Shown: positions 40,182-64,000, counted from the first letter of the stretch. The stretch is 64,000 bases of DNA from Escherichia coli (GCF_044324875.1 NZ_CP172185.1), one strand, 5' to 3'. The notes: generated by a model from the letters alone, not told the origin. Numbers and translations are program-made.

Positions 40182-40411
40182 CTTCTCTCCTTAGGAATAA
40201 AACTAGATGTATAATCTATTGTTTTTTCATTTGTTGTTTTGTTTGTGTTTTTTAGGGGCCACCAATAAGGCCCCTTGCGCAGTTCGAATTCTTCTGGTGC
40301 TATTTTTCCTCTTTTTTCTGTCTTCCTCCATTATTCTGTTTGACTCGATGTTCTGTATTACGAAATCGAATTAGAGGGCAGATACTTAGAAATTACCAGT
40401 TCAGCTTTCCA

Positions 40412-41197
40412 TTAGTTCCGGATGTTTAAACGTGATATGCGCGGAGCCCTTCTTAAAGTATCTGATACTGAACATCTCATCTTCATAGCACTCTTTACCC
40501 TGAACAGACTGGATGTGCCATCCTGATGAATGGTTATGTTTTTCCCGTTGCCGGGGATGGGGGTGCCGCTGAACAGATGTAGCATTCTTTCCAGGTCGGC
40601 GAGTCGGTCAGTCTGTTGTCCGGTGATAAGATGAAATCCCCACCGGTCCCATCTCACCAGATTGTTGATAATGATTTTACTTCCAAATTTACAGGGAGAG
40701 TTGGTTTTATAATTCCAGCTCAGTTCCCTGAAGACGTTAATCACTCCCCGCTTAAACACCTCATCCTTGTTCTGGTGCACTTGTTCAAATGTGCTCAGAA
40801 TGTTCGCTTCACTGATTTCCGGAAAATTATCATATTCCAGTGACCTGTACCATGTATCACGTGCCTGTGCATCCATTAAGGAAAGCATCCCGGAACGCTG
40901 CATCAGGTTACGCCAGATTTCGCGGTCAAGATTCCGGGTAATGGCTTTCATTGCGGTTTCCTGTTTCTCCTTCAGCCAGCAGCCACAGCGAAAATCCTGT
41001 TTCATGGCCCAGTCCGGGGCGGTTTTACCTCCAATACTTTCCGTCAGAATTGAGATTTTAGCCAGTTGCCGGATAAGTGTGTCGATTGGCAACAGTGTAC
41101 TCTTTCGTACAGCCAGAATGTGGCAGACTGAGGTGGAACAGATAACGTCCGTATGCCCGCTGACCACCTCCGGGCGGGAGAGTGTGGTATCTGACAT
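40412..41197 (-). CDS. Island protein, DUF4942-like (gene commonly found after cbtA/yeeW in CP4-type islands)
   Basis: 261-aa ORF at the distal end of the toxin-antitoxin cassette; family assignment is from memory of typical cassette order, not a search. Confidence 0.5.
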   Translation of the reverse strand: MSDTTLSRPEVVSGHTDVICSTSVCHILAVRKSTLLPIDTLIRQLAKISILTESIGGKTAPDWAMKQDFRCGCWLKEKQETAMKAITRNLDREIWRNLMQRSGMLSLMDAQARDTWYRSLEYDNFPEISEANILSTFEQVHQNKDEVFKRGVINVFRELSWNYKTNSPCKFGSKIIINNLVRWDRWGFHLITGQQTDRLADLERMLHLFSGTPIPGNGKNITIHQDGTSSLFRVKSAMKMRCSVSDTLRRAPRISRLNIRN

Positions 41198-41281
41198 AAT
41201 CGTTTTTCCTTTTTGCAGATAAATGAAAACGCCAGCTCTGTTCAGGCTGGCGTCAGGAGAATGAAGTCTGGTGAGTGAGAT

Positions 41282-41707
41282 TCACCGGTTCTGGTGCAGA
41301 AGTTGCAGTTGGTGCAGGGTACGGATATCCTCCCTGGCCTGTTCGATACAGGGCAACAATGCTGCCGAATCCGTTTTATCCTCATCGTTGTCGAAAATAA
41401 TTCCGGACCCGCAGTCGATATTGTCCTGCAGCCACGCAATGAGGATATCCAGCGCTGTTTCAGTGGTTAATGGCATCACGCTCTGTATCACTGTATTGTC
41501 TTCCGGCAACTGATGAGAGCTGGCAGAAGTCGCCGGTGTTTCGGTAGCGTCACGTTCATCCACCACGCGGAGTGAATAACCGTATTCAGCGACCTTGTTA
41601 ATCAGTTCAGTGAGCTCAACACCATCAATGTCAACGACAATTCGCCCTATATTCAGTGCCTGTACGTTAACGCTGTCTGCTTCCAATGTCAGGGCCAGTT
41701 TCATCAT
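41282..41707 (-). CDS. YeeW-like protein (DUF5983-type)
   Basis: 141-aa acidic ORF whose start overlaps the cbtA-like stop (ATGA), as in yeeV-yeeW. Confidence 0.55.
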
Positions 41708-42078
41708 TTCGCCTCCGGATACTTACCCAGGGTAATGTTATTTACCGTTCTGTAATTGTCGCGGGTCATCAGGCCGGTCGCCCTGCGAGCCCGGAGGATA
41801 TCGATGCTGTTTATTAACTGAGAGCGGGTACAGGCGCTGAATCCCGGCTGGTCGGTACGCACCAGCGCGTATTTTTCCACGAGAAAGTTCACCGCATCAC
41901 ACAGTGAAATGCCTGCCTCAATATGCAGCTCAATCACGCGTTCATCCGCGAACGGTGTGTCATTCAGCGTAAGGCTGTAATGCTGGTCCAGTAACCGGGT
42001 GAGCAGTGTCTGCCAGATGGTGACGGGAGACGGGCAACACGATGCCTCCCGTACATGCGTGTCGGGTAATGTTTTCAT
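41704..42078 (-). CDS. cbtA: CbtA/YeeV-family toxin (type IV toxin-antitoxin system, cytoskeleton-binding toxin)
   Basis: 124-aa [37 protein letters not shown]... matching the YeeV/YkfI/YpjF family. Confidence 0.85.
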
Positions 42079-42167
42079 AATGAAGATTTTCCTGATATGC
42101 AGAGATAAAAAATGGGACAGTGGCGTGGTGAAAACACCAGGCCGGAGCAGAAGATTATTCTGATGAT

Positions 42168-42536
42168 TTACTTTTTCGTTTCGGGCGTCGGATAAACAGC
42201 CAGATAAACGTAACCACAGGAGCCGAGGGTGTCGGCTTCACAGGTCAGCCCCTTCGCATACAGTGTCACGGTATGCTGATGGCGGGGATTCAGTTCACCG
42301 CTGGTGAGCATGAGCTCCAGTTGTTTCATCGGCAGCGGAAAGGCCTGGTCCGGATGGTACGCATCCGCATCTCTGAACCGGCCTCTGATACCGGCACGGT
42401 CGGCAAGGTAATGCAACCGGTTACCCTCCTGCACCAGACGTGCCCCGAAACAGGGCGTCACGGTGCAGGGCAGTCCCCACCAGAGGCGGTCGTGATTGTC
42501 GTCGTGATGCGTTGTCCCGGGGAGTGTGTCTGACAC
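42168..42536 (-). CDS. cbeA: CbeA/YeeU-family antitoxin
   Basis: 122 aa from GTG 42534-42536 ([48 protein letters not shown]...); RBS GAGG about 10 nt upstream; the track ORF is extended upstream in frame. Confidence 0.85.
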
Positions 42537-42585
42537 GATAAAATCCTCACAGAAAATCGTTGAATGATAGTTTAACTTTGACAGG

Positions 42586-43230
42586 TCAGCCGGTGCGCAG
42601 ACCGGCTTCGGTGAAGGTGTATTCGTTGATGAGAAGGGCCTCATCCACAGGGGCATCTGAGGTCAGCCTGTTGTGCTCGTTTTCCAGTTGACGGTACAGC
42701 CAGAAGGCCAGGTCGCGCAGGGCTTCGCTGACAGCGGCTTCCGCATCTGTTGTCATAGTCTGACCAGTCGGACTGTTCCGGGTAACAGTGATATCCATGC
42801 TGTACGGATGGCAGTAGCGTCCCCGGCGGTGGATTTCAGCCTGCAGTTGCCAGAAGTTACGCTTCTGCACCGCCTGCAGGGCATCCGCGATACGATGGAG
42901 TTCATGCTCCTGTGGGGCATACTTCCGGATTATCCGGGCTGTCGCCGGCTGCCAGTGCCAGCGTCCTTCAAAACAGGCTCCGTCCCCCTGGCTGCAGCAT
43001 CCGCTGAACCAGATGCACGGCTCTTCCATAAACCTGCCGTTGCTGAGCCGGAAAACGCGCTGGCGGAGGTCAATTCCGAAAATGTCACAGACCGCCCTGA
43101 AGTCCTCATACACGTTTTCATACCAGTTGCTGTCAGCATGATGCTGACGGTACCCGTCGCGGGCTTTTCCCCGTACCGGGCAGGAAAGTTCATCCAGCGT
43201 ATACACTGTGATGGTGATAATGCTGCTCAT
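42586..43230 (-). CDS. Cysteine-rich hypothetical protein (214 aa), unrecognised family, inserted between the DUF987 and antitoxin genes
   Basis: ATG 43228-43230 with RBS AAGGGG 7 nt upstream, 18 bp after the DUF987 stop; 10 Cys including a CIWFSGCCSQGDGAC cluster; no family recognised by me. Confidence 0.5.
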   Translation of the reverse strand: MSSIITITVYTLDELSCPVRGKARDGYRQHHADSNWYENVYEDFRAVCDIFGIDLRQRVFRLSNGRFMEEPCIWFSGCCSQGDGACFEGRWHWQPATARIIRKYAPQEHELHRIADALQAVQKRNFWQLQAEIHRRGRYCHPYSMDITVTRNSPTGQTMTTDAEAAVSEALRDLAFWLYRQLENEHNRLTSDAPVDEALLINEYTFTEAGLRTG

Positions 43231-43248
43231 CAGAATCCCCTTTCTGAT

Positions 43249-43470
43249 TCAGTTCAGGGTGACGCTCATCAGCCGGACATACGGGCCAAAACTGTCCTTA
43301 CGGCGTTCAGCAAACACGGCCAGCACACCGGGAATATCCTGTACTTCACGACCGGTATACGTCTCAGCACTGCCGTGCCAGCGGTACTTACCGGTGCAGA
43401 ACGGAAATAGACGGGATGCAGGATGCTGTTGGTGAATACGCATGGCTTCACCACGGGTGATAATTTTCAT
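43249..43470 (-). CDS. YeeT/YkfH/YpjJ-family protein (DUF987)
   Basis: 73-aa ORF MKIITRGEAMRIHQQHPASRLFPFCTGKYRWHGSAETYTGREVQDIPGVLAVFAERRKDSFGPYVRLMSVTLN, near-identical to remembered YeeT. Confidence 0.85.
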   Translation of the reverse strand: MKIITRGEAMRIHQQHPASRLFPFCTGKYRWHGSAETYTGREVQDIPGVLAVFAERRKDSFGPYVRLMSVTLN

Positions 43471-43532
43471 AATGGGATACCTCTGAAGACAGAAGATAAA
43501 AGTGAAAACAGGTGTGATGTGGTTGTGACGGG

Positions 43533-44009
43533 TTAAAGCAGACCATGTTCGGCAAAGGAGAAAACCTGGCTGCCACCGACTATCAGATGGTCCGGCACCC
43601 GGATATCCACCAGGCCCAGTGCCTGTACCAGACGTTCCGTGATAAGGCGGTCTGCCTTGCTGGGTGTGACTTCACCGGACGGGTGATTGTGCGCCAGCAC
43701 CACGGCAGCGGCATTGTGGTACAGGGCGCGTTTAATCACTTCCCGGGGATGGACTTCCGTGCGGTTGATGGTGCCGGTGAAGAGGGTTTCACCGGCAATC
43801 AGCTGATTCTGGTTGTTCAGATACAGCACCCGGAATTCTTCACGCTCCAGTCCCGCCATGTTCAGAATCAGCCATTCCCGTGCCGCATGCGTGGAGGTGA
43901 AGGCCACGCCGGGTTCATGAAGATGGCGGTCCAGGGCTTTCAGGGCCCGCTGAATGAGGCTGCGCTCTCTGGTTGTCATTTCTCCGGGCAGAAAGGAAAT
44001 CTGTTGCAT
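43533..44009 (-). CDS. RadC-like JAB/MPN-domain protein (YeeS/YkfG/YfjY family)
   Basis: 158-aa ORF with JAMM motif HNHPSGEVTPSKAD. Confidence 0.88.
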   Translation of the reverse strand: MQQISFLPGEMTTRERSLIQRALKALDRHLHEPGVAFTSTHAAREWLILNMAGLEREEFRVLYLNNQNQLIAGETLFTGTINRTEVHPREVIKRALYHNAAAVVLAHNHPSGEVTPSKADRLITERLVQALGLVDIRVPDHLIVGGSQVFSFAEHGLL

Positions 44010-44024
44010 TGTTCCGGCCCCCTT

Positions 44025-44504
44025 TCAGTCAATGATGCGCATAATGGCGCTGCATTCCGGATGCTGCAGGGCGTAATCCCGCAGACGGTAATAATGAACC
44101 GTCATGGCATAACACTCCGTACGGCAGGCGTGATGACTGTACGTCATCAGACAGGCAGCAATGCCGGCGGCTTCCGGGCTCATTTCAGCGCGGTTACCGT
44201 TCATGGCATTGAACAGTACCCATGTTTCGTCATCATCATCATCCGGTTCGGGGGCCATAAATGCCCCGCCGTTGTTCAGGGTGTACAGATTCCAGATACC
44301 ACCGCAGTAGTCTTCGCACAGACGGTCCATCCAGCCGAAGACACTGGGCTCCAGGGTCACCCACTGTGGAATGAGGCCAAAATGCTGCGGCCAGAAGCTG
44401 ATGCGCTGTTCATCAGGGACGAGGCTGGCAACCAACTGAGGCGGATTATTCTCTGGTGTTGTAGCTGAATAAATTGTGGGGGTATTCTGAGAAACGGTTT
44501 TCAT
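44025..44504 (-). CDS. Antirestriction protein (KlcA/ArdB-like, YfjX/YafX family)
   Basis: 159-aa ORF with acidic stretch EPDDDDDE and the conserved C-terminal region of island antirestriction proteins. Confidence 0.85.
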   Translation of the reverse strand: MKTVSQNTPTIYSATTPENNPPQLVASLVPDEQRISFWPQHFGLIPQWVTLEPSVFGWMDRLCEDYCGGIWNLYTLNNGGAFMAPEPDDDDDETWVLFNAMNGNRAEMSPEAAGIAACLMTYSHHACRTECYAMTVHYYRLRDYALQHPECSAIMRIID

Positions 44505-44585
44505 GAGATAACGCCTTAAATAACAAATAAATGTGTGTTTTTCAGGAACGAAAGCTGAATGATTCCCTCACTCAGGGAAACGGCA

Positions 44586-45404
44586 TCAGCGCATGCTCTC
44601 CAGCAGCGTTTCTGCCATCACCCACAATGCGCGGTTGAGTTTTATATCGGTATCAATGCTGTGAATGGCCCGGGTATGGATACGTTTTCCTTTTGCACTG
44701 CGACCGGAAATCCCGCCTTTCAGCATATTCTCCTGGATGGTCTGATAAGCACTCCACAGGTCCTTACCGTAATCCTCCCGGCGTCGTGGTGTCAGAATGT
44801 CGGCGGTGGTGACGGGCTGATGTTCGTCACCATAACGGTAAGTCAGTGCCGCCTGTGCCAGCGCCTGGCGTGCCGGTGGCGGCAGGACCAGCGACTGCAT
44901 GGCATCACGCTTCTCCTCTATCCGGTCAAACACGCCCACCACCTCGTAAGCCCCTTCAATGACTCTGTCCACCACATTTCCCCGGTGCGGAACACGCACT
45001 TCCCCCCGAGACTGACCGCAGACGCATCCGTTCTGGCAGACGAACCTGAAGTAACCCGGCAGCATCTGGTAGCTGGAGGTACCGTCATGAGAGTTGAGCA
45101 GAATAATTTCAGGGACATGTTGTCCGTTTATCTCCCCGTCACGGCGCAGACGCAGCATGTGTTTGGTATACCCCCGGCGACCCGGGTCACGTACGCGGGT
45201 CTGGCAGGCGAAGAATGGCTGAAAGCCTTCCCGCTGCAGGCTTTCCAGCACGGTGATGGTGGGGATGTATGTATAGTTCCGGCTCCGGGAGGTGTGTTTA
45301 TCTTCCCCGAAAATCCCGGGCACATGGTGCATCAGCTCTTCACGGGTCAGCGGACGGTCACGGCGTATCTGGTTCGCATAACCAAAACGACTGGCTAATC
45401 GCAT
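44586..45404 (-). CDS. DUF932-family protein (YfjQ-like)
   Basis: 272-aa ORF, ATG with RBS GGAG; conserved first gene of the antirestriction-radC-TA cassette. Confidence 0.8.
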   Translation of the reverse strand: MRLASRFGYANQIRRDRPLTREELMHHVPGIFGEDKHTSRSRNYTYIPTITVLESLQREGFQPFFACQTRVRDPGRRGYTKHMLRLRRDGEINGQHVPEIILLNSHDGTSSYQMLPGYFRFVCQNGCVCGQSRGEVRVPHRGNVVDRVIEGAYEVVGVFDRIEEKRDAMQSLVLPPPARQALAQAALTYRYGDEHQPVTTADILTPRRREDYGKDLWSAYQTIQENMLKGGISGRSAKGKRIHTRAIHSIDTDIKLNRALWVMAETLLESMR

Positions 45405-45447
45405 ACTTTGCTCCTTATCAGTGGTTAAGACTGAATGACGTAATCAA

Positions 45448-45481
45448 TGAAAAAGCCGCGTCTCACGGAGAAGACGCGGCC
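45448..45481 (-). terminator. Rho-independent terminator after the secreted-protein/small-ORF pair
   Basis: Hairpin gccgcgtct-cacggaga-agacgcggc followed on the minus strand by T5. Confidence 0.5.
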
Positions 45482-45504
45482 TGATGGATGAAATGAATGA
45501 GGGT

Positions 45505-45657
45505 TTACCGAAGCCCTTCAGCATTGTGGTGACGCAACCGGAAATGCGTTCCCTGATCATCTTCAATAAGCACATTGCGGTAAGCTGTTGTGACAGCCAT
45601 CGCCTGTTCGCGTGAGAAAGGGCCTTCGGGCAATAAAACAGGGTGACAGTCCGACAT
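45505..45657 (-). CDS. Small ORF (50 aa), tightly coupled downstream of the 225-aa secreted protein
   Basis: ATG 6 bp after the upstream stop; [41 protein letters not shown]...; below the ORF-track length cut-off; resembles small island proteins but family not verified. Confidence 0.3.
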
Positions 45658-45662
45658 ACCGG

Positions 45663-46340
45663 CTATTTTCCGATAAATTCAACGCTGGCGCCGGTGGCAT
45701 TACCGTCAGCACCAACCGTGACGGTCACTTTGTCGTACGCACGGTCTTCAGGATTGAACACTTCAAACTCAACCTTATTGCCTTTTACTTCGTAAGAGCC
45801 AAAATCAGCGGTTTCTGTTATTTCCTCGTCATATTCCCGGGCGTATGCCTGCCGGGCAGCCTGCAGGACGGAATCTTTATTAATAGTGGTCGTCTGTTTC
45901 GGGGAAAAACCGGCAAGTGATGTGACAAATTTCGGACAGACCTTCAGCATATCACCGCGGGTGAATTCCATTCGTACACCAAATGCCTGTAAAACGGACA
46001 CATCACGCTCTGCTATGGAGTGAACGGCTTTTTTGACCATTTCCGGCGCCTGTCCGACTTCCACCTCAACAGCCCTGAATCCTGTCTGCTGATTACACAT
46101 TTGTGATGTGGGGATCAGGTTACCGTTAATACTGATACGGTTGCCCAGGAGCGTCTGTACGCCATTCGGGCATCCCTGCATCAGGCCGGTAATACCAATC
46201 GTGCCATTTTTCAGCATTACCAGCGCCTGACCATCTTCCGTCATGGTCTGACACCAGCCGTTTTTGACAGCCCAGTTGCCGGCGGAGGCGGAGAATGATG
46301 CCACAGTGAACAGCAGGGGAAAAAGAATTCTGGTATTCAT
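45663..46340 (-). CDS. Secreted/periplasmic hypothetical protein (225 aa) with signal peptide
   Basis: N-terminus [23 protein letters not shown] (signal peptide with AxA-type cleavage site); RBS GAGG; occupies the cargo slot between the GTPase and DUF932 genes. Confidence 0.6.
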
Positions 46341-46458
46341 GACTGACCTCTGAAATTAAAGAGCGTGTTATTGATAATGACAGACGGTATACGGCAGTGG
46401 TTACCGTAATCCGTTGTCGTGTAAAGGTATACGGTTGCCACGGGGGACTCCGGAGCGT

Positions 46459-47343
46459 TCAGAACAGGTGATCCCACAGAGTGACCAGCAGGTGGATAAT
46501 GCGGTCCCGGGTTTTGCGCAGAAGCTGTAACATCCAGGCCGGAAAACTGAAACGGGCAACGGCGTCGTCAAAACTTTTCCCGATGGTTTCACCAAAAGTC
46601 TGTTGTGCGTGTTTCTGGACCCGTTCAGAGCGGTTTTCCCCCCGGATATGTGAATAAACCGCGCTGGTTGCCTGTGGCGGCAGTGCGTGGATCATCAGTG
46701 ACACCAGTGCCGGAATATTCCAGCCGACAGGCGCGGCAACGGGGAGTACCGGAAATGATGAAGGGAACAGGGTTGCCACCCGGGCTGTCACCGTCGCCAG
46801 CGAGAGTTCCTGGTGACGGGACGGGCATTTTTCTGTGTCGTTCCATTCTTCAGCAGGAAATACGCGATCGGCATGGCTGAGAACAAACAGAAAACGCGAG
46901 GGATCTGCACCTTCATTCAGTAAAAACTGATGCATGGCGATGTCGGCAGCATACGCACGTTCATCAGCCCGCAGGATCCAGATAATCAGATCCAGTTCGG
47001 GCAGTAACTGACTGTAAAGTGCCCGGTATTCCTGATCATGCTGTGGTGTTTCGCCAGTGCCGGGCAGATCGACCAGCGTCATTCTTCGTTCACCGGGCTG
47101 AAAGGTAAGACGATGAGCCTGACGGGTGCAGCCGTTCAGCGGATGCGTGGCGCAGACACGGGACTGAAAAATGGCATTGCACAGGCTGCTTTTTCCGGCA
47201 CCGGATTTACCCATAATGCCAATCACGGGCTCGTAATGAATAACACTGTGGAGATGTTCAAGGATTTTCTGGCGAATTTCTTCAGGAAGAAACGTCAGAT
47301 ATGATTTCACTTGTGCGGAGAGGGAAGAATGGCTGAATGACAT
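46459..47343 (-). CDS. YeeP/YfjP/YkfA-family GTPase
   Basis: 294-aa ORF with P-loop GIMGKSGAGKSS and G3 motif DLPGTG; typical lead gene of CP4-type island cassettes. Confidence 0.85.
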   Translation of the reverse strand: MSFSHSSLSAQVKSYLTFLPEEIRQKILEHLHSVIHYEPVIGIMGKSGAGKSSLCNAIFQSRVCATHPLNGCTRQAHRLTFQPGERRMTLVDLPGTGETPQHDQEYRALYSQLLPELDLIIWILRADERAYAADIAMHQFLLNEGADPSRFLFVLSHADRVFPAEEWNDTEKCPSRHQELSLATVTARVATLFPSSFPVLPVAAPVGWNIPALVSLMIHALPPQATSAVYSHIRGENRSERVQKHAQQTFGETIGKSFDDAVARFSFPAWMLQLLRKTRDRIIHLLVTLWDHLF

Positions 47344-47448
47344 ACCGGTATCCTGTTGATTTCACTGAACCGGATCACACTAATCCGGTTTATCATTCAG
47401 GTAATATGGGCGTGAAAAAATCTGGAGTGACAAAGTTCGGGAGGAGTG

Positions 47449-48399
47449 ATGGCATCACTGTCGATTAATACGCTACGCCGAATGAGCATTTGTAAAAGTC
47501 AGGCCTGGAAAGATACCCAGCGAATACTGAAGCGTAGTGGACTTGTGTACAGAGGGGAACGGTCAGAATCGTTTGATCCTGAGAAACATTTTAATCGTTA
47601 TACGGTGCGTTATCTGTACCTGCTTAACATAATTGCGCTTAAGATAAGGTCGGTTAGTAAATTTTCCTGTTGGATCGAGGTGGGACAATGCCATCGTATG
47701 ACTGGTAAACATTTATCTCTTAATGCCCCGCCTTTTATGCTGATTCCGCGTAGTATCCGGAGAAAAGTGGATGGATTCAGACAGTCAAAAGGTGAAGCAA
47801 CCCCAAAATCGGCTCAACCGTTCACGGGCAGTTTGTATGAGGTTTTGAGAAAGGAGAGCGATTCAGCTAAGCTGGACGCATGGATTGCTGAACTGCCTCT
47901 GAACTTGCAGGAGGAGGGAAAGGAAATCTCAGTCATGGGATTTAGTCCACGGGCTGTGGCCCGACCTGTTCTTCGGTCAGCATCCCCGACGTTTGAACTG
48001 TTTTATCAGGAGTATCAATCCCTAAGATTAAAATCTGTTTTTAAATTTGAACCAAGATTTGAACAACTTTTAACAAGACTGAGCTTTAGAAAACAATCAA
48101 TTCTCAGAAAACAACAATACAGGGTTAAATCGCAATTACTGGAGAGACTGGGGAATGTGTTGTTTTTCACGTCGCTTTATAACCAGGGATGTTTAGAGGA
48201 GTTTATAAATGCACTTGTGGAAAAGGAGGACATTTATCTGAAAATGTCCCCTGGGGAGGAAAAGGTGAAAGCACACCAGAAAATGGTTAACTACATTGAA
48301 GCGTTCTGCAACAAAATGACGGAAAAATACCTGATGCCCGCAGCAAGCAGACACTACAAAAAGAAGAAAATCGCCAGGAGCGAAAGTGGTGAAAGTTAA
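47449..48399 (+). CDS. Hypothetical protein (316 aa), low GC, unrecognised family
   Basis: Strong RBS GGGAGGAG 4 nt before ATG 47449; divergent from the GTPase gene; basic and coiled-coil-rich; no motif I can assign. Confidence 0.55.
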   Translation: MASLSINTLRRMSICKSQAWKDTQRILKRSGLVYRGERSESFDPEKHFNRYTVRYLYLLNIIALKIRSVSKFSCWIEVGQCHRMTGKHLSLNAPPFMLIPRSIRRKVDGFRQSKGEATPKSAQPFTGSLYEVLRKESDSAKLDAWIAELPLNLQEEGKEISVMGFSPRAVARPVLRSASPTFELFYQEYQSLRLKSVFKFEPRFEQLLTRLSFRKQSILRKQQYRVKSQLLERLGNVLFFTSLYNQGCLEEFINALVEKEDIYLKMSPGEEKVKAHQKMVNYIEAFCNKMTEKYLMPAASRHYKKKKIARSESGES

Positions 48400-49184
48400 T
48401 CCAGTCTACCGTACAGAATCAGTTGTTCCAGAATAGCCTGCTGTGTTGTTTTCCGCTCTCTGGTCAGTCTGTCCAGAGCGCTTTTTGCGGATGGCGATAT
48501 CTTTACGTTGATTTGTACCCGTTTATCTTTTTTTCCATCGATAAACTGTTTTCTGAATGCATTGTGCATCTTGTCGAAAAATCTTTCTTTTGCAGCGAAT
48601 CCTAGGTGAAATTCTTTTGGCGTCAGTAAACAGGGTGTGTCTGTGGGGAATAACATTTTTAGTAAAACTACAATGGCAATATATCTTTCGTTATCATTTA
48701 CAGGATTAAACCAGGAAAGATATGTGGGTGAGATACGTGCATCAATATATTCCCATGCCCATTTCAGTTGTTCGGTATTCTTTTTAAGCCATTTGGCTTC
48801 GTTTCTCTTTTCGAGTCCCAGCCAGTTTTGATGCATTATTGAGATAATCCGATCTGCTTCCCCATAAAGGATTAACGCATTAATCCATTTCCCTATAACA
48901 TTCAGTCGTGTTTCATGACTTGAAGGAATAATTGTCATGGGGTTATCCTTCATAACGATCACCCCCTTCAAGGCAGAGTTGAACTCAGATTCATTATTAA
49001 GTTTAAGTTTTTCGGGAACTGTATGAGACATAATTAACCAGAACCAGAATGCTGCAATTTCATTTTTTCTGATCCATTCAGGTATGTGATTATCTGCCAG
49101 ATTATTATCATTCAATAAATGCTCAGTTGTTTTATTTTTCCAGTCATATCTATTCACGTTATAACCGCCTTTATATTGTTTCAT
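48396..49184 (-). CDS. Hypothetical protein (about 262 aa), low GC, C-terminal ribbon-helix-helix-like segment
   Basis: ATG 49184 with RBS GAGG 8 nt upstream (the track ORF starts 29 codons earlier); stop overlaps the convergent gene stop by 4 nt; C-terminus KISPSAKSALDRLTRERKTTQQAILEQLI resembles RHH DNA-binding folds. Confidence 0.5.
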   Translation of the reverse strand: MKQYKGGYNVNRYDWKNKTTEHLLNDNNLADNHIPEWIRKNEIAAFWFWLIMSHTVPEKLKLNNESEFNSALKGVIVMKDNPMTIIPSSHETRLNVIGKWINALILYGEADRIISIMHQNWLGLEKRNEAKWLKKNTEQLKWAWEYIDARISPTYLSWFNPVNDNERYIAIVVLLKMLFPTDTPCLLTPKEFHLGFAAKERFFDKMHNAFRKQFIDGKKDKRVQINVKISPSAKSALDRLTRERKTTQQAILEQLILYGRLD

Positions 49185-53596: not shown

Positions 53597-53613
53597 ACAG
53601 CGCTGTTGTGCAG

Positions 53614-55273: not shown

Positions 55274-55281
55274 GTATTCAT

Positions 55282-55452: not shown

Positions 55453-55653
55453 TTCATGGAGTTTGTTTACCATTCTGTTTTTCTTAAAAGTGAGTGTCTG
55501 TGCGGTCACTAAACTCGGTAATAAAGCAGTTCATTGCAGGATAAGAAGCGTTTGGTTGTGTCGTTTTACCGTAAGAACCGACCGCCGTATGTATCCATTA
55601 AGCCAGTATTGGTAACGTAGGTGCCCACCTTTTCAAACTGGTGGGCGCCTGTT

Positions 55654-55826
55654 ATGGAGCAAAAACATTATCCGCAGAACCCCGCAGATCATTTTCAAAT
55701 GAGTTAAACTTCAAATGGTTAAACTGGTTTTGCAACCAGGAGCCTCTGTTGCCCGTATTGCCCGGGAACACGATATCAATGATAACCTCCTGTTCAAATG
55801 GCTCAGACTCTGGCAGAACGTAAGGT
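55654..55826 (+). pseudogene. Transposase helper (HTH OrfA-type) remnant of an unidentified IS
   Basis: Short frames encoding MEQKHYPQNPADHFQMS-stop and ...LQPGASVARIAREHDINDNLLFKWLRLWQ, resembling IS OrfA HTH segments; interrupted by stops. Confidence 0.3.
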
Positions 55827-55904
55827 AAAGGGAGATGAAAAAGGCAATAGCAGAACTGAGTGACAGTGAAACCATTCTGGCGTACAGGGTTGGATGGTGA
55901 AACT

Positions 55905-55938
55905 GATAAAAAACCCTCTGAAAATTCTGTCAGAGGGT
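55905..55938 (-). terminator. Candidate rho-independent terminator (minus strand)
   Basis: Perfect 8-bp stem ccctctga/tcagaggg with 8-nt loop, followed on the minus strand by T6. Confidence 0.35.
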
Positions 55939-56649
55939 GTAGTCAAAAATGGTAGATATTTACGATGCAGTAATGCTTTCACTCCGGTAATTAATTTCCG
56001 TGATTAACTGCTTTCGATCAATAAAGGAATTGCAAAAGTGTGATCTTGTTCACGACATTGTGGATGATAATATGCCTGATGTCTGAATCCGGAAACAGTG
56101 ATCTGGCGGTTTCATGTGAAGTTGACGGATAAAAAATCCGCACGACCAGACAGACGTGCGGTTTACGAAATTCGTAACAAGAGGCTTTTCTACGGATCAC
56201 GTGGTGCGTGCCACGTGAAATTTTTGTAGCGCAAAATGTGTGATGTGTAAATACAAGGAAGGAAAAAAGTTAAATCGGTGGAAGTCCATGCCTGCCACAT
56301 GTATGTCTGCATTCCTCGTTTTGAACAGAATTCTCACCAGACATCGTGAATTTCTCATTCAATCATCAGAGATATTACCCAGGATTTTTATTGTTTTGTG
56401 ATAGCAGTACTTTAAATGTTCAGATGCTAAAATAAGCGCGCTTATTATAATTATAGTTATGATGTTTTATCTGTATGTATTTTAATGATTTTCGCGTCAT
56501 TGCTTTTCTGCTGCTTAAATTGAAGGCGCATATTATACACAATAATATTCCTGGCATTATTAAATTAATAAAAGAGGATTCTTATCACTGTATTTTTGCT
56601 CCGCACTACCGTTCTGGCTGGTGAAGTAATAATACAGGAGAATAACAGA

Positions 56650-58197
56650 ATGCTTAAAAGACGTGATGCTTTTTTAAAGAAAAGCGCGCTGGCAGTGAGT
56701 GTGGCCCTGCTGCTCTCGGCTCAGGCTCAGGCTCAGGATATTTTAATCGGACCGATTGAACCTGGCGAAGATAATAGCTTTCTTGTTGGAGAATCAGTAG
56801 CTGGCCGTTCGATTGATAAAGTAAGAAATGTATGGTTGATTGGTGATGATTCTTTTTTATTAGACTCAAACAGGACTGTGCTTTTGGGGAATAATTCTGA
56901 TGTTGTGAACTCTCCGGGAAGTGTGAGTCTGGGGCATGATGCACTTATTGCTGACTCTGAATGGGGGACTGTTGCAGGAAAAGAAGCGTCACTTATTTCT
57001 TCTCGTCAGAGCTCGGCAATTGGTGCGTTTTCATCTGTGCAGGATTCTACCAGTTCTGTAGCTCTGGGCCATGGCTCACAGGTGTCGGGAGAAAATAACG
57101 TGGTATCTGTTGGTGCCGGGCCTGAGGGATATGGAGAGAGTGTCAAAGGAGCACCGGAAACCCGCCGGATTATAAATGTGTCTGATGGTATCAATAACAC
57201 AGATGCAGCGACGGTAGGGCAACTGAATGAACGATTTGATGATGCACAGGTCTTTTTGTTGCAGACGAATGAAAGAATTGACGAGACAGATAAACGTCTT
57301 TCAACAGTTCATGCTGAACTCAGCAGGGATATTATTGCAGGCACATCGGCAGCGGTGACGTATACAGATGTAACAGCGCTTGCACTTCAGGATGAGATAA
57401 AGGATGGGACGAACAAAGTACGTGATGAGTTGAAATCACAGGGAGACAGTCTGCGTGGTGAGATAGGCGGTGTATACAGAGATGCCCGTGCTCATACTGA
57501 CAGTCAGGTCACAGCAGTACGTGATGAACTGAAGGCAGAGGGAGACAGTCTGCGCGGTGAGATAGGCGGTGTATACAGAGATGCCCGTGCTCATACTGAC
57601 AGTCAGGTTACAGCAGTACGTGATGAACTCAGCAGGGATATTATTGCAGGCACATCGGCAGCGGTGGCGTATACGGATGCATCTTCTCTTGCTCTTCAGG
57701 ATGAAATAAAAGAAAAAGCGGATGAAACAGTTCAGGTTTCCCGGGCTTATACAGATAAAAGTGTACGGGATGCCCGTAAAGAAGCGAAAAGCCAGGCAGA
57801 ACATCTCAGCGATGTGCTTGTGAAGAACAGGGCGCAGACGGATGCAGCAATAGCCTCAAATACAGCAGCGATAAGGAATAACAGTCATCGTCTGGATTTG
57901 ACGGAAGCCTGGCAGAAGATGGCGACAGAGAGAATGAATAATATGCAGGAGCAGATTAAAGAGAACCGGAAGGAGTTAAGGGAGAGTGCAGCCCAGAGCG
58001 CGGCACTGGCAGGTCTTTTCCAGCCATACAGTGTTGGAAAATTTAACGCGACAGCAGCCGTTGGTGGTTACCGTGATGAGCAGGCCATTGCGGTGGGCGT
58101 GGGCTACCGTTTCACAGAGAATGTGGCAGGAAAAGTTGCAGTTGCTGCAGGTGGGTCATCCGCATCGTGGAATGCTGGTGTGAATTTTGAGTTCTGA
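56650..58197 (+). CDS. YadA-type trimeric autotransporter adhesin (515 aa; Eib/Saa-like size class)
   Basis: Signal peptide [29 protein letters not shown], repetitive coiled-coil stalk, and C-terminal YadA-like anchor ending ...[19 protein letters not shown] 9 nt upstream; AT-rich 5' region. Confidence 0.8.
57313..57730 (+). repeat. In-frame tandem and nested repeats inside the adhesin stalk
   Basis: A 105-bp unit (...[33 protein letters not shown]) occurs twice in tandem (about 57424-57528 and 57529-57633), flanked by two copies of a second roughly 100-bp unit ([16 protein letters not shown]...ALQDEIK) at 57313 and 57625. Confidence 0.7.
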
Positions 58198-58258
58198 CAG
58201 GTCAGGATTTAGATATCTGTCCCGGGGGGAGTCCCCCGGGATATAATGAGGTACAGAG

Positions 58259-58714
58259 ATGCTGGATATAATCCTGGCGACGAGAGATATTTATTTTGAA
58301 AAAGCCCTGCGAGAGATATTTGGAACCGTAAGCAGTCGAATCAGATATATAGAAGATGCCATATCAGACAGAAGAAGGGTGCAGTCAGGCAGGTCATTCA
58401 GATATTATTTTGTATTCTGTGATGATGAGTATACAGATATTGTTCGTATTCTTTTTACCGGAGAGGCCTGCTGTATTCTGAATAAGTCGATGCTGAATCT
58501 GAGAGCGGCCGGAGGTGTGTTGACGCTGGAAGAGCGCAGAGCGGTACTGAACCGGTATTACAGAGGTTTAAGTATTGCGGAGATTACAGAAGAGACGGGG
58601 CAGAATGACAAGACGGTATACGGTCATCTTCGTCGTGCACTGCAGCGGTCTGGATTCCGGAAGGGGCGTTTTATAAAGGGGAGAGAAGCGGCGGGGGATT
58701 CAGGTGTTGAATAA
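58259..58714 (+). CDS. Putative transcriptional regulator with C-terminal sigma-70 region 4 / LuxR-type HTH
   Basis: 151-aa ORF; C-terminal LTLEERRAVLNRYYRGLSIAEITEETGQNDKTVYGHLRRALQ resembles sigma region 4/GerE-type HTH; 60 bp downstream of the adhesin gene. Confidence 0.45.
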   Translation: MLDIILATRDIYFEKALREIFGTVSSRIRYIEDAISDRRRVQSGRSFRYYFVFCDDEYTDIVRILFTGEACCILNKSMLNLRAAGGVLTLEERRAVLNRYYRGLSIAEITEETGQNDKTVYGHLRRALQRSGFRKGRFIKGREAAGDSGVE

Positions 58715-58788
58715 TGTATCTTATATTGTGATATTGAACCGCCCCGGGAATCCTGGAGACTAAACTCCCTGAGAAAGAGGTAAACAGA

Positions 58789-59115
58789 ATGACTAAAAAT
58801 ACTCGTTTTTCCCCCGAAGTCCGTCAGAGGGCGATTCGTATGGTTCTGGAAAGTCAGGGCGAATATGACTCACAGTGGGCGGCAATTTGTTCCATTGCCC
58901 CAAAGATTGGCTGTACACCGGAGACTCTGCGTGTCTGGGTACGCCAGCATGAGCGGGATACCGGAGGCGGTGATGGCGGGCTCACCACCGCTGAACGTCA
59001 GCGTCTGAAAGAGCTGGAACGTGAAAATCGTGAACTGCGCCGCAGTAACGATATCCTTCGCCAGGCTTCCGCTTATTTTGCGAAGGCGGAGTTCGACCGC
59101 CTCTGGAAAAAGTGA
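58789..59115 (+). CDS. IS629 transposase OrfA
   Basis: 108-aa [63 protein letters not shown]... matching IS629 OrfA. Confidence 0.9.
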
Positions 59116-60002
59116 TGCCACTGCTGGATAAGCTGCGTAAGCTGTACGGGGTCGGACCGGTATGCAGTGAACTACATATTGCCCCGTCAACGTATTACCA
59201 CTGTCAGCAACAGCGACATCATCCTGATAAACGCAGTGCCCGTGCGCAGCGCGATGACTGGCTGAAGAAAGAGATACTGCGCGTATACGATGGGAATCAT
59301 CAGGTATACGGTGTGCGTAAAGTCTGGCGTCAGTTGTTACGGGAAGGAATCAGGGTAGCCAGATGTACAGTGGCGCGCCTCATGGCGGTTATGGGACTTG
59401 CCGGTGTTCTCCGGGGTAAAAAGGTCCGCACTACCGTCAGCCGGAAAGCCGTTGCCGCAGGCGACCGCGTAAACCGTCAGTTTGTGGCAGAACGTCCTGA
59501 CCAGTTGTGGGTGGCTGATTTTACTTACGTCAGCACATGGCAGGGGGTCGTCTATGTGGCGTTCATCATTGATGTGTTTGCCGGATACATCGTGGGGTGG
59601 CGGGTCTCATCGTCTATGGAAACGACATTCGTGCTGGATGCTCTGGAGCAGGCGTTATGGGCCCGTCGACCGTCCGGCACAGTCCATCACAGTGATAAAG
59701 GTTCTCAGTATGTATCGCTGGCCTACACACAGCGGCTTAAGGAAGCCGGATTACTGGCATCAACAGGAAGTACTGGTGACTCGTATGACAACGCGATGGC
59801 GGAGAGCATCAATGGCCTTTACAAAGCGGAGGTAATACACCGTAAGAGCTGGAAAAACCGGACAGAAGTGGAGCTGGCCACACTCACGTGGGTGGACTGG
59901 TATAACAATCGACGATTGCTGGAAAGGCTGGGCCATATCCCACCGGCAGAAGCAGAAAAAGCTTATTATGCTTCCATCGGAAACGATGATCTGGCAGCCT
60001 GA
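59112..60002 (+). CDS. IS629 transposase OrfB (DDE integrase core)
   Basis: 296-aa ORF overlapping orfA by 4 nt; motifs [16 protein letters not shown] and [15 protein letters not shown]. Confidence 0.9.
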
Positions 60003-60410
60003 GTTCACAGATAAAACACTCTCCAGGAAACCCGGGGCGGTTCATATCGGTGCTGCTGCTGTTATTTTTTGTTGTATTTGTGACGAATGGTTAAGAATAA
60101 AACATGAGTTGGTGATTATCAGGACAGGTTGCTTGTATATGAAGATAACAAAGGCGGCATTTATTTTTGCGCTGTCAGTGTGGAGTGTTGCTGTGATATG
60201 TCTTTTATTATTTGTACTGGTTGTTCTGGGATAGCTATAGTGGAATTATTATTTTTTTAAGACTATGGTTTATATTTTTATTCGGCAATATTTCTGTAAA
60301 CAATTAAATATCAGAAAGGCGTGTTGTATGCGTGAACACGCCTGAGTATGTATACAGAGATTGTTAATTTGGAGAGAATAATTACAGTTGTTATTTATTT
60401 GACGTCCTGA

Positions 60411-60695
60411 TTAGTGAAAAAACCAGTCATCAGCAGTTTCCCAGACTTCCTGCAGCGTTTCCTGTATGAACTTCTGAGCGTTTTCTTTATCTACGGCTCT
60501 TAAAATGGTCAGTCCGTCATTACTGGCGGATTTTACTATAACCTCCACATCGTCATATCGTTTTCTGGTACGGCGAGACATTTCCTGTTGTAGAGCAGGT
60601 ACAGAGCCTTTTGGCATTTTGCTGAATTTTTCTTTAGCGATACAGATCTCAATACGAATAAAAGTCCCTCTGCACTGTGTTATTTTTATCTGCAT
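60411..60695 (-). CDS. DinI-family protein (DNA-damage-inducible protein I-like)
   Basis: C-terminus [18 protein letters not shown] matches the DinI signature [25 protein letters not shown] resembles the DinI N-terminus MRIEVTIAK; true start within the 94-aa track ORF is uncertain. Confidence 0.6.
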
Positions 60696-61541
60696 GAATA
60701 AACAGTGTCAATAGATAAGATTGGTTGTAAGGAATCAATGGAGCATGTATGGGACATTTTTAACCGACTAAATTCACAGAAGTTCGTAGGCATCGAAAAC
60801 GAATCATCTGTCCAACCCTTTAAAAACGGCTCTCTTGGACGATTTTCGTCGTTTTTTAAAATGCAACAAGTACGTTGTTCATATGATTTCATTCCATCTC
60901 ATGGGACTGGCGCTACCTTTGTTTGATCTCCCTTGGTATGAGAATTTTTCTGAAATTTTTGGACATTTAGTAGGGTTCTGGTCCATTGAAATTGTTCGCA
61001 GATATTTACGAAACAGAATTACTCATGAGCCAGACCTTGAGATCCATTTAGGCTCAAACAGATAATGTATTGAATTATAAAAATGGCGCAAATACAGTGC
61101 CATTTTTATGGGGTAAATGTTACTTATTTCCTTCTGATACAGGAGAAAAAAGGTCTGATGCAGGTAGCCAATGAGCCTGTAACTCCACTTCGATACTGTA
61201 GAACTGGAGATTTCTACGGAGGAAGACACGTTGTTGCTGGAAGTGAGGAGAAATCTCGGGTGATGTTGAATCATGTTAATACATCAGTAGCACTGGATAT
61301 CGGGAGAACGGTACTACCAGAGGGACAGCATACGCCCGCTACAGTTTGGCGGGCGTAAGGGCATTAAGATTTTTAGAGAGAGCGTTCAGAATTCTGTGTC
61401 ACGTTAAAAATTCTACAGTGTCATCACAGTATTCAGTCGCCCTTCAAAATAAATGGCTAACTGCGACAATGTCAAATTCCAGCTCTGGATCGGCATTGTC
61501 CATTTTTTCTGTACGTTCATCAGCCCCAGATAAAGCAGCTT

Positions 61542-61981
61542 CTACAGACTATTTTCATTCGGGAAAGCACCTTTGGTTTTGGTCAGTTTCCTGAACTGGC
61601 GATGGACTGATTCAATCGCATTTGTGGTGTAAATGACCTTGCGGATATTTGCCGGATAGCGGAAGTATGCTGACAGGTTTTCCCACTTGCGACGCCACGA
61701 CTGAAGCACCACCGGATATTGCTGGCCCCATTTCGCCTCCAGCTCATCCAGCGCCGTTTCTGCGGCTTCTTTCGACACCGCGCGATATACCGGCTTCAGG
61801 TCGGCCATGAACGCTTTGTGGTGTTTTGCCCTCCAGATTCAGCGCCAGCACCGTGTAAACGACCTTGCTCTGGTAGCGGCCATCCTCCCTGATTTTATAG
61901 TGAATGGCATCCAGCCATACGAAGGGGTAAACCTTCTCCAGCGGGCGCTGTTGCCACTGTTTTAACTCAGGAATGACCTTA
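61542..61981 (-). pseudogene. IS256-family (mutator-type) transposase remnant, internally deleted and truncated by the IS66-family insertion
   Basis: Minus-strand frames encode ...IPELKQWQQRPLEKVYPFVWLDAIHYKIREDGRYQSKVVYTVLALNLEGK and, in another frame, MADLKPVYRAVSKEAAETALDELEAKWGQQYPVVLQSWRRKWENLSAYFRYPANIRKVIYTTNAIESVHRQFRKLTKTKGAFPNENSL; the segment between them is too short. Confidence 0.7.
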
Positions 61982-62018
61982 GTAAGCGTACAGCGAGGGC
62001 CGTATTGACGGGGATGTG

Positions 62019-63557
62019 TTATTCAGCTGGCAGTGCTATGCGCCACGGAAGCAGTTCGCTGACCCGGTTGACCGGCCAGTCTGCTATGACGCCAAGCACA
62101 TGGCGAAGGTAGCTTTCTGGATCCACGTCATTCAGTTTGCACGTCCCTATCAGGCTGTACAGTAGCGCTCCCCGCTCACCACCATGGCCAGAGCCGAAGA
62201 ACAGGAAGTTTTTACGACCCAGACTTACCGCCCGCAGGGCATTTTCAGCGATGTTGTTGTCGATTTCCACCCAGCCATCGTTCGCATAGTACGTCAGTGC
62301 CGGCCACTGGTTAAGTGCGTACGCGAACGCCTTCGCCAACTCTGAGTGTCGCGACAGGGTCTTCATCTTTTCACGCAACCAGCTTTCCAGGGATTTCAAC
62401 AGCGGTTTCGTTTTTCGCTGACGTTCAGCAAGCCGCTGCTCTGCCGGCATTCCCCTTATATCCGCCTCTATGGCGTACAACTGACCGATCTGCTCCAGGG
62501 CTTCTTCCGTCAGTGCTGACGGGATGCGGACGTGCACATCGTGGATCTTTCGGCGGGCATGAGCCCAGCAGGCAGCTTCCGTTATCCCACCATTGCGATA
62601 CAGCTCGTTGAACCCGGCGTACGCATCCGCTTGCAGCACACCGCTGAAGCAAGCAAGATGAGTCTGCGGATGGATGCCTTTTCTGTCCGGGCTGTAAGCG
62701 AACCACACTGCAGGTGCCAACGCTGACCCGGCATTGCGGTCATCACGAACATACGCCCACAACCGCCCGGTCTTCGTCTTCTTATTACCCGGCATCAGTA
62801 CCTGGACCGGGGTATCATCGGCATGGAGTTTGCCGTCAGTCATGACATAGCCATGAAGCGCCTCTTCCAGCGGAGACAGCAGCCGGCAGCATGCATCCAC
62901 CCAGCCCGACAGCAGTGAACGGCTCAGCTCCACACCTTGCCGGCCGTATATTTCTGACTGGCGATACAGCGGGGTGTGCTCTGCATACTTCGAGGTCAGC
63001 ACGCGGGCCAGCAGCCCCGGTCCGGCGATACCCCGCTCGATGGGCCGCGAAGGTGCAGGTGCCTGCACGATGGCATCGCACTGAGTACAGGCATGTTTTT
63101 CCCGTACCGTCCGGATAACCCGGAAGGCGCTACGCATCAACTCCAGCTGTTCGGCGGTATCCTCGCCCAGATAGCTCAGTGAACCGCCGCAGTTCGGGCA
63201 GCACGGCGCCGCAGGCAACAGTCGCTTTTCGTCACGGGGTAGTGATTCAGGGAACGGCTTACGGATGCGGGTCTGACGCAACGGACGCTGTACTGCCGGG
63301 TCATACACCCTACCAGTCAGCGTATCGCTCTCTTTCTGAAGCCGGTTCAGATCGGCTTCCATTTGTGCGATACGGCGGGAGACTTTTTCGGAACGACTGC
63401 CGAAGTTCATCCGGCGGAGTTTATCCAGCTGCGCCTGCAGATGGTCTATTTCGCGCTCCCGGTTGCTCAGCTTTTCCTGCAGGGCGTGGATCAGCGCTTC
63501 CTGTTCGGCCAGGCGCTGTTTCAGCAGGAAGATGTCGTCAGAAGAGATGTCGTTCAT
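62019..63557 (-). CDS. IS66-family transposase (large ORF)
   Basis: 512-aa ORF with N-terminal coiled coil ([20 protein letters not shown]), zinc-finger CCPNCGG...CTQCD and DDE core typical of IS66 transposases. Confidence 0.85.
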
Positions 63558-63606
63558 AAGCCCGTATTTTACCGGGCTTATTCTGTGACAACCAGGATAA
63601 AGAGAT

Positions 63607-63954
63607 TTACAGCATGGTCAGGGAGGTCAGCAGCCGCTTAGGCTGTCGCCAGTCGATACCTTCCAGCAGCATCGCCAGCTGCGCCTGTGTAAGGAACACT
63701 TTGCCATCACGGGCTGACGGCCAGGCGAAGCGCCCACGCTCCAGCCGTTTGGTCAGGAGGCACAGTCCGTCACCGGTGGACCACAGCAGTTTAACCTGAC
63801 TGCCGCTGCGGCCCCGGAAAATGAAAACATGGCCGGACATGGGATCGTCTTTCAGCGCCGTCTGTACTTTCGCAGCCAGGCCGTTGAAGCCATTTCTCAT
63901 ATCGGTGATACCGGCAACCAGCCAAATTTTGGTCCCGGAAGGTAAAGGGATCAT
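63607..63954 (-). CDS. IS66-family accessory protein TnpB (orf2)
   Basis: 115-aa [34 protein letters not shown]...[36 protein letters not shown] matching IS66 Orf2. Confidence 0.88.
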
Positions 63955-64000
63955 CGCTTCAGTTCCTGTATCAGCAGAGTCAGGAGCTTTTCGCTGACAT
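63951..64000 (-). CDS. IS66-family orf1 (TnpA helper), C-terminal end only; rest lies beyond the window
   Basis: Minus-strand frame ending ...[12 protein letters not shown] with TGA overlapping the tnpB ATG (ATGA), the standard IS66 orf1/orf2 coupling. Confidence 0.5.
   Translation of the reverse strand, partial: VSEKLLTLLIQELKR

Follow-up and report, generated by a model that had tools for sequence, protein, structure and literature searches.

The 64,000-bp segment of the Escherichia coli chromosome analyzed here (GCF_044324875.1, NZ_CP172185.1; hereafter the window, whose coordinates are used throughout) carries core genes up to ynjB and, from there to its right end, DNA of a genomic island. 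The original prediction, made from the sequence alone, described at ynjB a P4/CP4-like island that is not associated with a tRNA gene, has no integrase in view and is broken up on its right side by insertion sequences (IS), and proposed that this element is rearranged or composite and possibly immobilized by the loss of its integrase. The descriptive part of this prediction holds. Core synteny stops at the ynjB start codon (position 40181), and a blastn search with the K-12 segment xthA-ydjX-ydjY-ydjZ-ynjA yielded zero matches across the whole window, i.e., the genes that follow ynjB in K-12 are indeed missing from the remaining 24 kb. There is no tRNA or transfer-messenger RNA gene in the 64 kb, the insertion point being the 9-bp spacer that separates the ynjA stop codon from the ynjB start codon in K-12, and tblastn with the integrase of the island family discussed below detects no homologue anywhere in the window, including the vicinity of alpA.

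The genes to the right of ynjB (Table 1) were called from three sources, namely the RefSeq record of E. coli SCU-115, which is 99.3% identical to the window, Pfam matches on near-identical contigs, and direct comparisons. The first block is a minus-strand cassette that spans positions 40412-47343, from a DUF4942 gene to a YfjP-type GTPase gene. In tblastn searches with the proteins of the K-12 element CP4-57, this strand matched YfjP (36% identity), YfjQ (75%), YfjX (68%), YfjY (78%), YpjJ (64%) and YfjZ (67%), and the plus strand further to the right matched the gpII-like YfjJ (30%). The Pfam domains found on the near-identical contigs (DUF932, Antirestrict, RadC, DUF987, CbeA_antitoxin, CbtA_toxin, DUF5983_N and DUF4942) likewise bear out the predicted presence of hallmark CP4-type genes. 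Also as predicted, gpII and alpA are encoded on the plus strand, opposite to the cassette; this module additionally includes hypothetical proteins between gpII and AlpA and after AlpA. AlpA activates the integrase or serves as a directionality factor in CP4-57, and the AlpA-family protein of the window is a candidate excision regulator or directionality factor. The disruption of the right side by IS elements stands in a refined form, the elements being an IS1 pseudogene, an IS3-family element, an IS256-family fragment and ISEc8. The complete IS3-family element is labeled in RefSeq as 'IS3 family' only, and we refer to it as IS629-like; its ALIL frameshift pseudoknot is the single match in an Rfam search of the 39-64 kb region.

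Table 1. Features of the window from ynjB to its right end.
Feature	Position	Strand	Remarks
ynjB	39015-40181	-	Last core gene; start codon 40179-40181; Shine-Dalgarno sequence (GGAG) kept inside the attachment (att) core
attR core	40187-40198		CTCCTTA (40187-40193) same in attB and attL; GGAAT (40194-40198) island-derived
Integrase-distal att arm	40199-40411		Conserved hairpin GGGGCC..GGCCCC at 40256-40275
DUF4942 protein	40412-41197	-	261 aa; intact in the window, frameshifted in SCU-115
DUF5983_N/DUF957 (YeeW-like) open reading frame (ORF)	41282-41707	-	141 aa
CbtA-family toxin	41704-42078	-	
CbeA/YeeU-family antitoxin	42168-42536	-	67% identical to YfjZ
214-aa protein	42586-43230	-	Intact; RefSeq name 'antitoxin of toxin-antitoxin stability system'
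DUF987 protein (YeeT/YpjJ-like)	43249-43470	-	
RadC/JAB protein (YeeS/YfjY-like)	43533-44009	-	
Antirestriction protein (PF03230, YfjX-like)	44025-44504	-	
DUF932 protein (YfjQ-like)	44586-45404	-	75% identical
DUF905 protein and hypothetical protein	45505-46340	-	DUF905 protein 45505-45657; 225-aa hypothetical protein 45663-46340
YfjP/YeeP-type GTPase	46459-47343	-	First cassette gene
Two convergent hypothetical ORFs and AT-rich stretch	47446-50881		ORFs followed by 1.6 kb without an ORF of at least 100 aa
Hypothetical ORF	47446-48399	+	317 aa
Hypothetical ORF	48396-49271	-	291 aa
Inovirus-Gp2/YagK-YfjJ family protein	50882-51613	+	Replication initiator-like (gpII)
AlpA-family helix-turn-helix (HTH) protein	52611-52847	+	78 aa; Pfam Phage_AlpA PF05930, 2.6e-10
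Decayed segment	53614-55817		ProQ/FinO pseudogene, IS1 pseudogene (54525-55217), transketolase fragment, transposase fragment
Prophage-derived cargo block	55821-61981		
YadA-like trimeric autotransporter	56653-58197	+	
Sigma-like HTH protein	58259-58714	+	
IS3-family element	58735-60044	+	1310 bp; terminal repeats TGAACCGCCCCGGG...; 3-bp TAT duplication; ALIL frameshift pseudoknot
DinI-like protein	60411-60695	-	
IS256-family fragment	61542-61808	-	
ISEc8 (IS66 family)	61982-64000	-	tnpC 62019-63557, tnpB 63607-63954; extends past the window end

A 381-bp probe spanning the ynjB-island junction has matches in 5,407 complete E. coli genomes, and in all of these but 29, the match ends at position 40197 and the record goes on into ynjA; the junction as it occurs in the window is thus present in 29 of the 5,426 complete genomes. 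At the other end of the locus, an intact 395-aa tyrosine integrase of the P4 type directly adjoins ynjA in 29 complete genomes, and all 23 listed records of the ynjB junction fall within this set (hereafter the comparators), which amounts to ~17 distinct strains given that several of the records represent one strain resequenced. In SCU-115, a 90-kb island extends from the same ynjB junction to the integrase gene, which is followed by ynjA, ydjZ, ydjY, ydjX and xthA; in the 16 records for which the extent was computed, out of 23 with listed coordinates of both ends, the island is 74-99 kb long. The integrase has the domain architecture Arm-DNA-bind_3, Phage_int_M and Phage_integrase (PF13356, PF22022 and PF00589), and the tyrosine recombinase motif residues TGLR, HGFRH, LAH and GTY are recognizable by eye. 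In the public assembly collection, 2,596 indexed blocks contain the exact protein, and it adjoins ynjA in 10 of the 10 further assemblies that were inspected.

What the window shows to the right of ynjB, then, is one quarter of an island that is conventional in its makeup, albeit decayed, and specifically the quarter distal to the integrase, the integrase end and ynjA lying ~50-75 kb past the window as judged from the related genomes. By the terms of the original prediction itself, ynjA immediately beyond the window with an intact integrase and att structure would speak against it; all of these are found in the comparators, but tens of kilobases away rather than immediately beyond the window, and the suggestion that the element was immobilized by loss of its integrase is not supported, given the intact gene beside ynjA in the 29 comparators and the 10 additional assemblies. 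The interior cargo is shared between the islands of SCU-115 and of a different strain, NRZ14408, where it consists of a shiF-like major facilitator superfamily transporter gene, iucABCD-iutA (aerobactin), sitABCD, sodC, an IbrA/IbrB-like pair and many dead IS elements; the SCU-115 island additionally contains iha and integrative-conjugative-element pseudogenes (TIGR03756/TIGR03757).

In the orientation of the window, the integrase gene occupies the minus strand, with transcription directed away from ynjA, and is co-oriented with the cassette. The arrangement in which the GTPase gene and the adjacent hypothetical gene diverge, with gpII and alpA following on the plus strand, is also found in the islands of strains 135 and 144. 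Because the same layout recurs in these strains, the divergent orientation of gpII and alpA is a conserved trait of the family that involves no local inversion, and the view of the element as rearranged or composite, which was derived in part from this orientation, is not supported. In strain 135, a 97.6% identical 18-kb module consisting of the cassette, gpII, alpA and the YadA-like gene is located at the end of a cadC/pheU island, together with a tRNA-Phe repeat. As a separate observation, the integrase-ynjA end in this strain is at 3.26 Mb, and its best copy of the cassette-to-YadA module is the one at cadC/pheU, at 0.75 Mb.

Among the annotated or scanned ORFs of the window, which were not subjected to an exhaustive hidden Markov model survey, there are no conjugation genes (type IV secretion, relaxase or coupling protein). 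The P4 alpha-type primase/helicase is missing as well, as judged from the lack of a tblastn match to K-12 YfjI (DUF3987) in the window, and there are no relevant NCBIfam or PHROG matches to P4 capsid-size or helper-exploitation genes in the proteins scanned, sid, psu, delta and cos not having been searched individually.

Comparison of the occupied and empty loci defines the attachment sites. In the window orientation, attB of K-12 reads ...CATCATCT-CTCCTTA-AGAACG (longer form, GCGCATCATCT-CTCCTTA-AGAACGTTT), attR of the window is CATCTTCT-CTCCTTA-GGAATAAAAC (longer form, GCGCATCTTCT-CTCCTTA-GGAATAAAACTAG), and attL of the comparators, as represented by SCU-115, is GTAGTACC-CTCCTTA-AGAACG (longer form, GAAGGTAGTACC-CTCCTTA-AGAACGTTT), from which attP is reconstructed as GGTAGTACC-CTCCTTA-GGAATAAAAC. 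The common CTCCTTA probably constitutes the 7-bp overlap; attL and attR differ by A/G, which indicates that strand exchange took place within or to the left of this heptamer. On the coding strand, this core reads TAAGGAG, which is the stop codon of ynjA followed by the Shine-Dalgarno sequence of ynjB, and since the core repeat carries both of these elements, both genes remain intact upon insertion.

The two arms of the island connect it to islands that integrate at tRNA-Phe genes. The 227-bp attR arm of the window is found in near-identical form in the 29 comparators only, and in ~1,100 genomes, it has matches with 72-76% identity over ~175 bp. In the two of these genomes that were inspected, the match occupies the distal terminus of a pheV island, with a flank gene (yghD, or kpsF with an IS110 fragment) on one side and, on the other, a short toxin-antitoxin pair, which is in turn followed by a DUF4942-led cassette. 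The homology of the arms begins exactly after GGAAT (CCTTAGGAAT|AAAACTAG in the window and GACTCGGAAT|GAAACTGG in the pheV islands), and the island-derived GGAAT at 40194-40198 has its homologue in the GGAAT that the attR of the pheV islands carries as part of the tRNA-Phe 3' end. On the opposite side, the nearest other E. coli integrase (89% identity at the protein level and 85% at the DNA level, including the upstream arm) adjoins tRNA-Phe (pheU) in strain E15 and ~500 other genomes, and in the attL alignment, the homology reaches into the core (pheU tRNA end TGGTGCCC compared to ynj TAGTACCC).

When the register is fixed by the homology of the flanking arms, the reconstructed core of the ynj attP (TAGTACCCTCCTTAGGAAT) and the tRNA-Phe 3' end (TGGTGCCCGGACTCGGAAT) agree at 12 of the 19 positions (binomial p ~5e-4). 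The outer positions of the core are kept, and five of the six central ones are altered to the sequence of the ynj spacer, i.e., the central GGACTC of the tRNA-Phe type corresponds to TCCTTA in the ynj type. Integration at a tRNA-Phe 3' end is accordingly not found in this island, of which attP retains only the degenerate 12/19 relic. The integrases of the ynj and pheU types differ at 43 amino acid positions, ~20 of which are within residues 247-300, and the other ~335 aligned residues are 5-8% different by manual count. We propose residues 247-300 as a candidate specificity or mosaic region that may help to set the core preference.

The chromosomal flanks and the island have diverged to very different extents. 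Between the window and SCU-115, there are 19-56 mismatches per kb in the core flank (45-56 per kb across ynjC-ynjB) vs 0-6 per kb in the island between 41 and 55 kb, and the last flank mismatch is at position 40077, ~120 bp from the junction; overall, island divergence is ~0.1-0.2% between hosts with flank divergence of 2-5%. Across 10 genomes chosen because they encode the identical integrase, 17 variable sites, which form several haplotypes, occur in the final 300 bp of ynjA, and none occur in the 1.5 kb that follow (the arm and the integrase gene). The step in divergence thus falls within ~75 bp of the junction on the ynjA side and ~120 bp on the ynjB side. Because the islands are identical although their backgrounds have diverged, and because the step is so close to the junctions, we infer repeated site-specific integration, that is, several recent insertions in separate E. 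coli lineages rather than one old insertion. Independently of the island, the ynjD-ynjC-ynjB region (36000-40181) is unusually divergent between the window and SCU-115, with 45-56 mismatches per kb compared to 19-44 per kb further to the left.

The interpretation that we favor, with a probability of roughly 0.8, is that positions 40187-64000 represent the attR end of an integrase-mobilized island of the tRNA-Phe lineage (pheU/pheV, SHI-3-like) that has been retargeted to the 9-bp ynjA-ynjB spacer. Under this scenario, the integrase would bind arm sites in both arms and core sites around CTCCTTA, exchange strands across the overlap and thereby recombine attP with the ynjA/ynjB spacer. The AlpA-family protein might activate the integrase or direct excision, and since conjugation and packaging genes are not present in intact form, cell-to-cell transfer would depend on a helper. 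In the genome from which the window comes, the island is expected to run on for tens of kilobases to an integrase gene beside ynjA. The insertion would uncouple ynjBCD from ydjXYZ and ynjA, which lie upstream. In the 230-bp stretch that separates ynjB from the DUF4942 gene, neither a consensus promoter nor a consensus terminator is present, and because the latter is missing, read-through from the cassette could drive ynjBCD. A more ambitious version of the proposal, to which we give even odds, is that this is a still or very recently mobile integrase system of the P4 family, specific for tRNA-Phe and naturally retargeted to a spacer within an operon, in which the 6-7-bp overlap of attP was rewritten, the integrase changes are concentrated in residues 247-300, insertion takes place precisely over the ynjA stop codon and the ribosome-binding site of ynjB, and ynjBCD may have come under the control of the island.

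Several considerations weigh against this interpretation. The integrase, attL and ynjA all lie outside the window, and from position 60247 on, the window has no counterpart in any of the 29 comparators and resembles instead the terminus of a prophage near potB, so this copy may be rearranged. The 7-bp repeat is not significant by itself, and the case for the att sites rests on the comparative boundaries. The reconstructed attP 32-mer, which would reveal the excised circle, has no match in the JGI metagenome contigs, nor does the attR 32-mer have one in the GTDB representative genomes. The choice of the 10 genomes for an identical integrase protein removed non-synonymous variation by design. 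Finally, the recombination activity, the function of AlpA and the read-through into ynjB are predictions from sequence.

The alternative that fares best, which applies the original prediction to the genome of the window and which we nonetheless regard as unlikely, is that in this particular genome the island is a rearranged or truncated composite, its integrase end having been deleted or moved by IS events, so that an immobile remnant sits at ynjB. It would account for the loss of colinearity with all ynj-type comparators past position 60246, for the patchwork of the right end (the IS629-like insertion, the DinI-like gene, the IS256 fragment and ISEc8), and for the junction between the IS256 fragment and ISEc8, which is not found in any complete E. 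coli genome; the island is heavily decayed by IS elements even in the comparators. The same comparators, however, share the attR junction with the window and retain an intact integrase beside ynjA, the IS629-like element, when compared to SCU-115, has the form of a clean, simple insertion with a 3-bp duplication, and the cassette/alpA orientation is conserved in sister islands. The presence of an IS element at the window edge is uninformative as to what comes after it. In a direct comparison, the ISEc8 of the window and an IS66-family remnant in the SCU-115 island show no nucleotide match.

The composition of the right end is also relevant for a second alternative. Positions 55821-58734 and 60044-61981 align colinearly, at 97-100% identity, with the cargo at the terminus of a lambdoid prophage in several other assemblies, where this block has the tail-fibre genes on one side and, on the other, an alpha/beta-hydrolase gene beside potB-potA-pepT-phoQP. 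It follows that the island captured a prophage cargo block and that the window keeps more of it than the comparators do. An inversion or translocation by recombination between the YadA/sigma/DinI block of the island and the near-identical prophage block by potB, in which case the DNA past the window would be prophage-flank or potB DNA, seems to us less likely still than the IS-generated remnant. Such an event is suggested by the 100% identity of 60044-61981 to the prophage-terminus block at five loci, given that the island-type SCU-115 shares just 60044-60246, with 2 mismatches, and that to the left of the IS629-like element (57417-58734), SCU-115 is 100% and one prophage locus 99.5% identical to the window. 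The signal, however, amounts to two single-nucleotide differences, and the longer block may be the ancestral state of the island, from which the SCU-115 type was shortened by its IS256-family element. That the same YadA-like/sigma-like/DinI-like/IS256-fragment block occurs in a prophage as well as in an integrase island is of note in itself.

It appears improbable that a tRNA-Phe island integrated once, illegitimately, at a secondary site and then spread by homologous recombination of large chromosomal fragments, with no retargeting involved. Integration at secondary sites is known for tyrosine integrases, and the ynj integrase has diverged by only ~11% from the pheU integrase, but spread by flanking homology is disfavored because such transfer should bring identical flanks along, whereas the flanks here are diverged up to ~120 bp (ynjB side) and ~75 bp (ynjA side) from the junctions of near-identical islands. 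Furthermore, the attP half-sites of the island are unlike tRNA-Phe, their sequence across the overlap being that of the ynj spacer, and ~20 of the 43 integrase substitutions are clustered in residues 247-300.

Last, the possibility raised in the original prediction that this gene content is native to the lineage at the ynjB locus, which could be read into its presence in five draft assemblies only (99.5-99.9% identical to the window across the junction), can be dismissed in view of the uninterrupted ynjA-ynjB pair in 5,397 of the 5,426 complete genomes, the occurrence of the same YnjB protein allele beside an intact ynjA in metagenomic contigs, and the atypical GC content (down to 37-40% in stretches of the island), att repeats and mobile-element genes. 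The lineage of the window itself is absent from the complete RefSeq genomes of E. coli: the top full-length identity of its core to any of these is 97.7%, or 98.8-98.9% when the IS1397 insertion described below is left out.

The retargeted island that we favor can be compared to three groups of known elements. The closest are the pheU islands of the SHI-3 or 'PAI iuc/iut' type, which have the 89% identical integrase (~85% at the DNA level including the promoter-proximal att arm), share the aerobactin cargo with the ynj comparators, and include one island with the same 18-kb cassette/gpII/alpA/YadA module at its end. The two differ in the target, which is the spacer between the ynjA stop codon and the ynjB Shine-Dalgarno sequence in one case and the tRNA-Phe 3' end in the other, and in the attP overlap, which in the ynj island is TCCTTA rather than GGACTC. 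In addition, SHI-3 is 21 kb in size (Purdy and Payne, 2001, as quoted in PMC7545054), compared to the 74-99 kb of the ynj island. With the GI-pheV family (PMC11537424), the ynj island shares the distal att arm, 72-76% identical over ~175 bp from right after the core, and a DUF4942-ended CP4-type cassette abutting attR, but it has another core sequence and chromosomal site and lacks the tRNA-derived 19-bp repeat. CP4-57 of K-12 encodes the same cassette families in the same order and in the same orientation relative to the integrase, with 36-78% identity, along with an AlpA-family regulator and the gpII-like YfjJ. By contrast, the integrase is only 36% identical to IntA, and the window lacks a homologue of YfjI (DUF3987). 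Moreover, CP4-57 is inserted at ssrA, with intA and yfjP...yfjZ all on one strand and alpA beside intA and co-oriented with it, whereas in the ynj island, alpA and gpII are divergent from the cassette and ~80 kb away from the integrase. Thus, the ynj island appears to descend from, and presumably works like, the tRNA-Phe islands but without integration into a tRNA gene.

The ynjA/ynjB spacer is a new attachment site for a well-known kind of element. It is absent from the site lists of a 2020 review of E. coli pathogenicity-island sites (PMC7545054) and of a 2024 study of GI-pheV (PMC11537424), and an island at this location was not found in the full-text literature, subscription literature and island databases being outside the reach of this search. 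For specialists in mobile elements, the finding is incremental and holds no surprise. It does correct the reading of the locus, in that the missing integrase is an effect of the window end and the odd orientation is the norm in the family, and it adds a non-tRNA site to the repertoire of E. coli islands, which island finders centered on tRNA genes would miss. The comparator islands carry virulence or fitness genes, namely those for aerobactin, Sit and Iha. Furthermore, the paired att sites of the tRNA-Phe and ynj types, together with the 89% identical integrases, make up a compact natural system for studying target change in tyrosine integrases.

Some additional features of the region deserve mention. 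The segment 47446-50881, whose AT-rich stretch has a GC content of 37-40%, is nearly invariant between the window and SCU-115 and is conserved in the sister islands; it has zero matches in NCBIfam, PHROGs, PADLOC and Rfam, and a PADLOC scan of the hypothetical proteins for defence systems returned only weak GTPase matches. Upstream of the YadA-like gene, a ~120-bp patch (56404-56526) has ~45 mismatches to SCU-115 amid near-identical DNA, which has the appearance of a promoter region replaced by another allele; an invertible promoter switch was considered here and rejected, the reverse complement matching at only 45 of 141 positions. A 99-bp tandem repeat (2.2 copies, 93% identical, at 57417-57629) encodes part of the stalk of the YadA-like protein. 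Stalk length is variable, given that homologues from other genomes have between 388 and 581 aa. The identification of this protein as an Eib immunoglobulin-binding protein was dropped when a PDB sequence search gave a YadA anchor and a generic trimeric-autotransporter stalk but no EibD chain; no identical copy of the protein is on record. In the core region of the window, between topB and gdhA, the IS3-family element IS1397 is inserted at 31082-32513. The insertion site is the same in E. coli HH45 and 23AR0806, and in draft assemblies of the lineage of the window, contigs break within IS1397, at position 32387.

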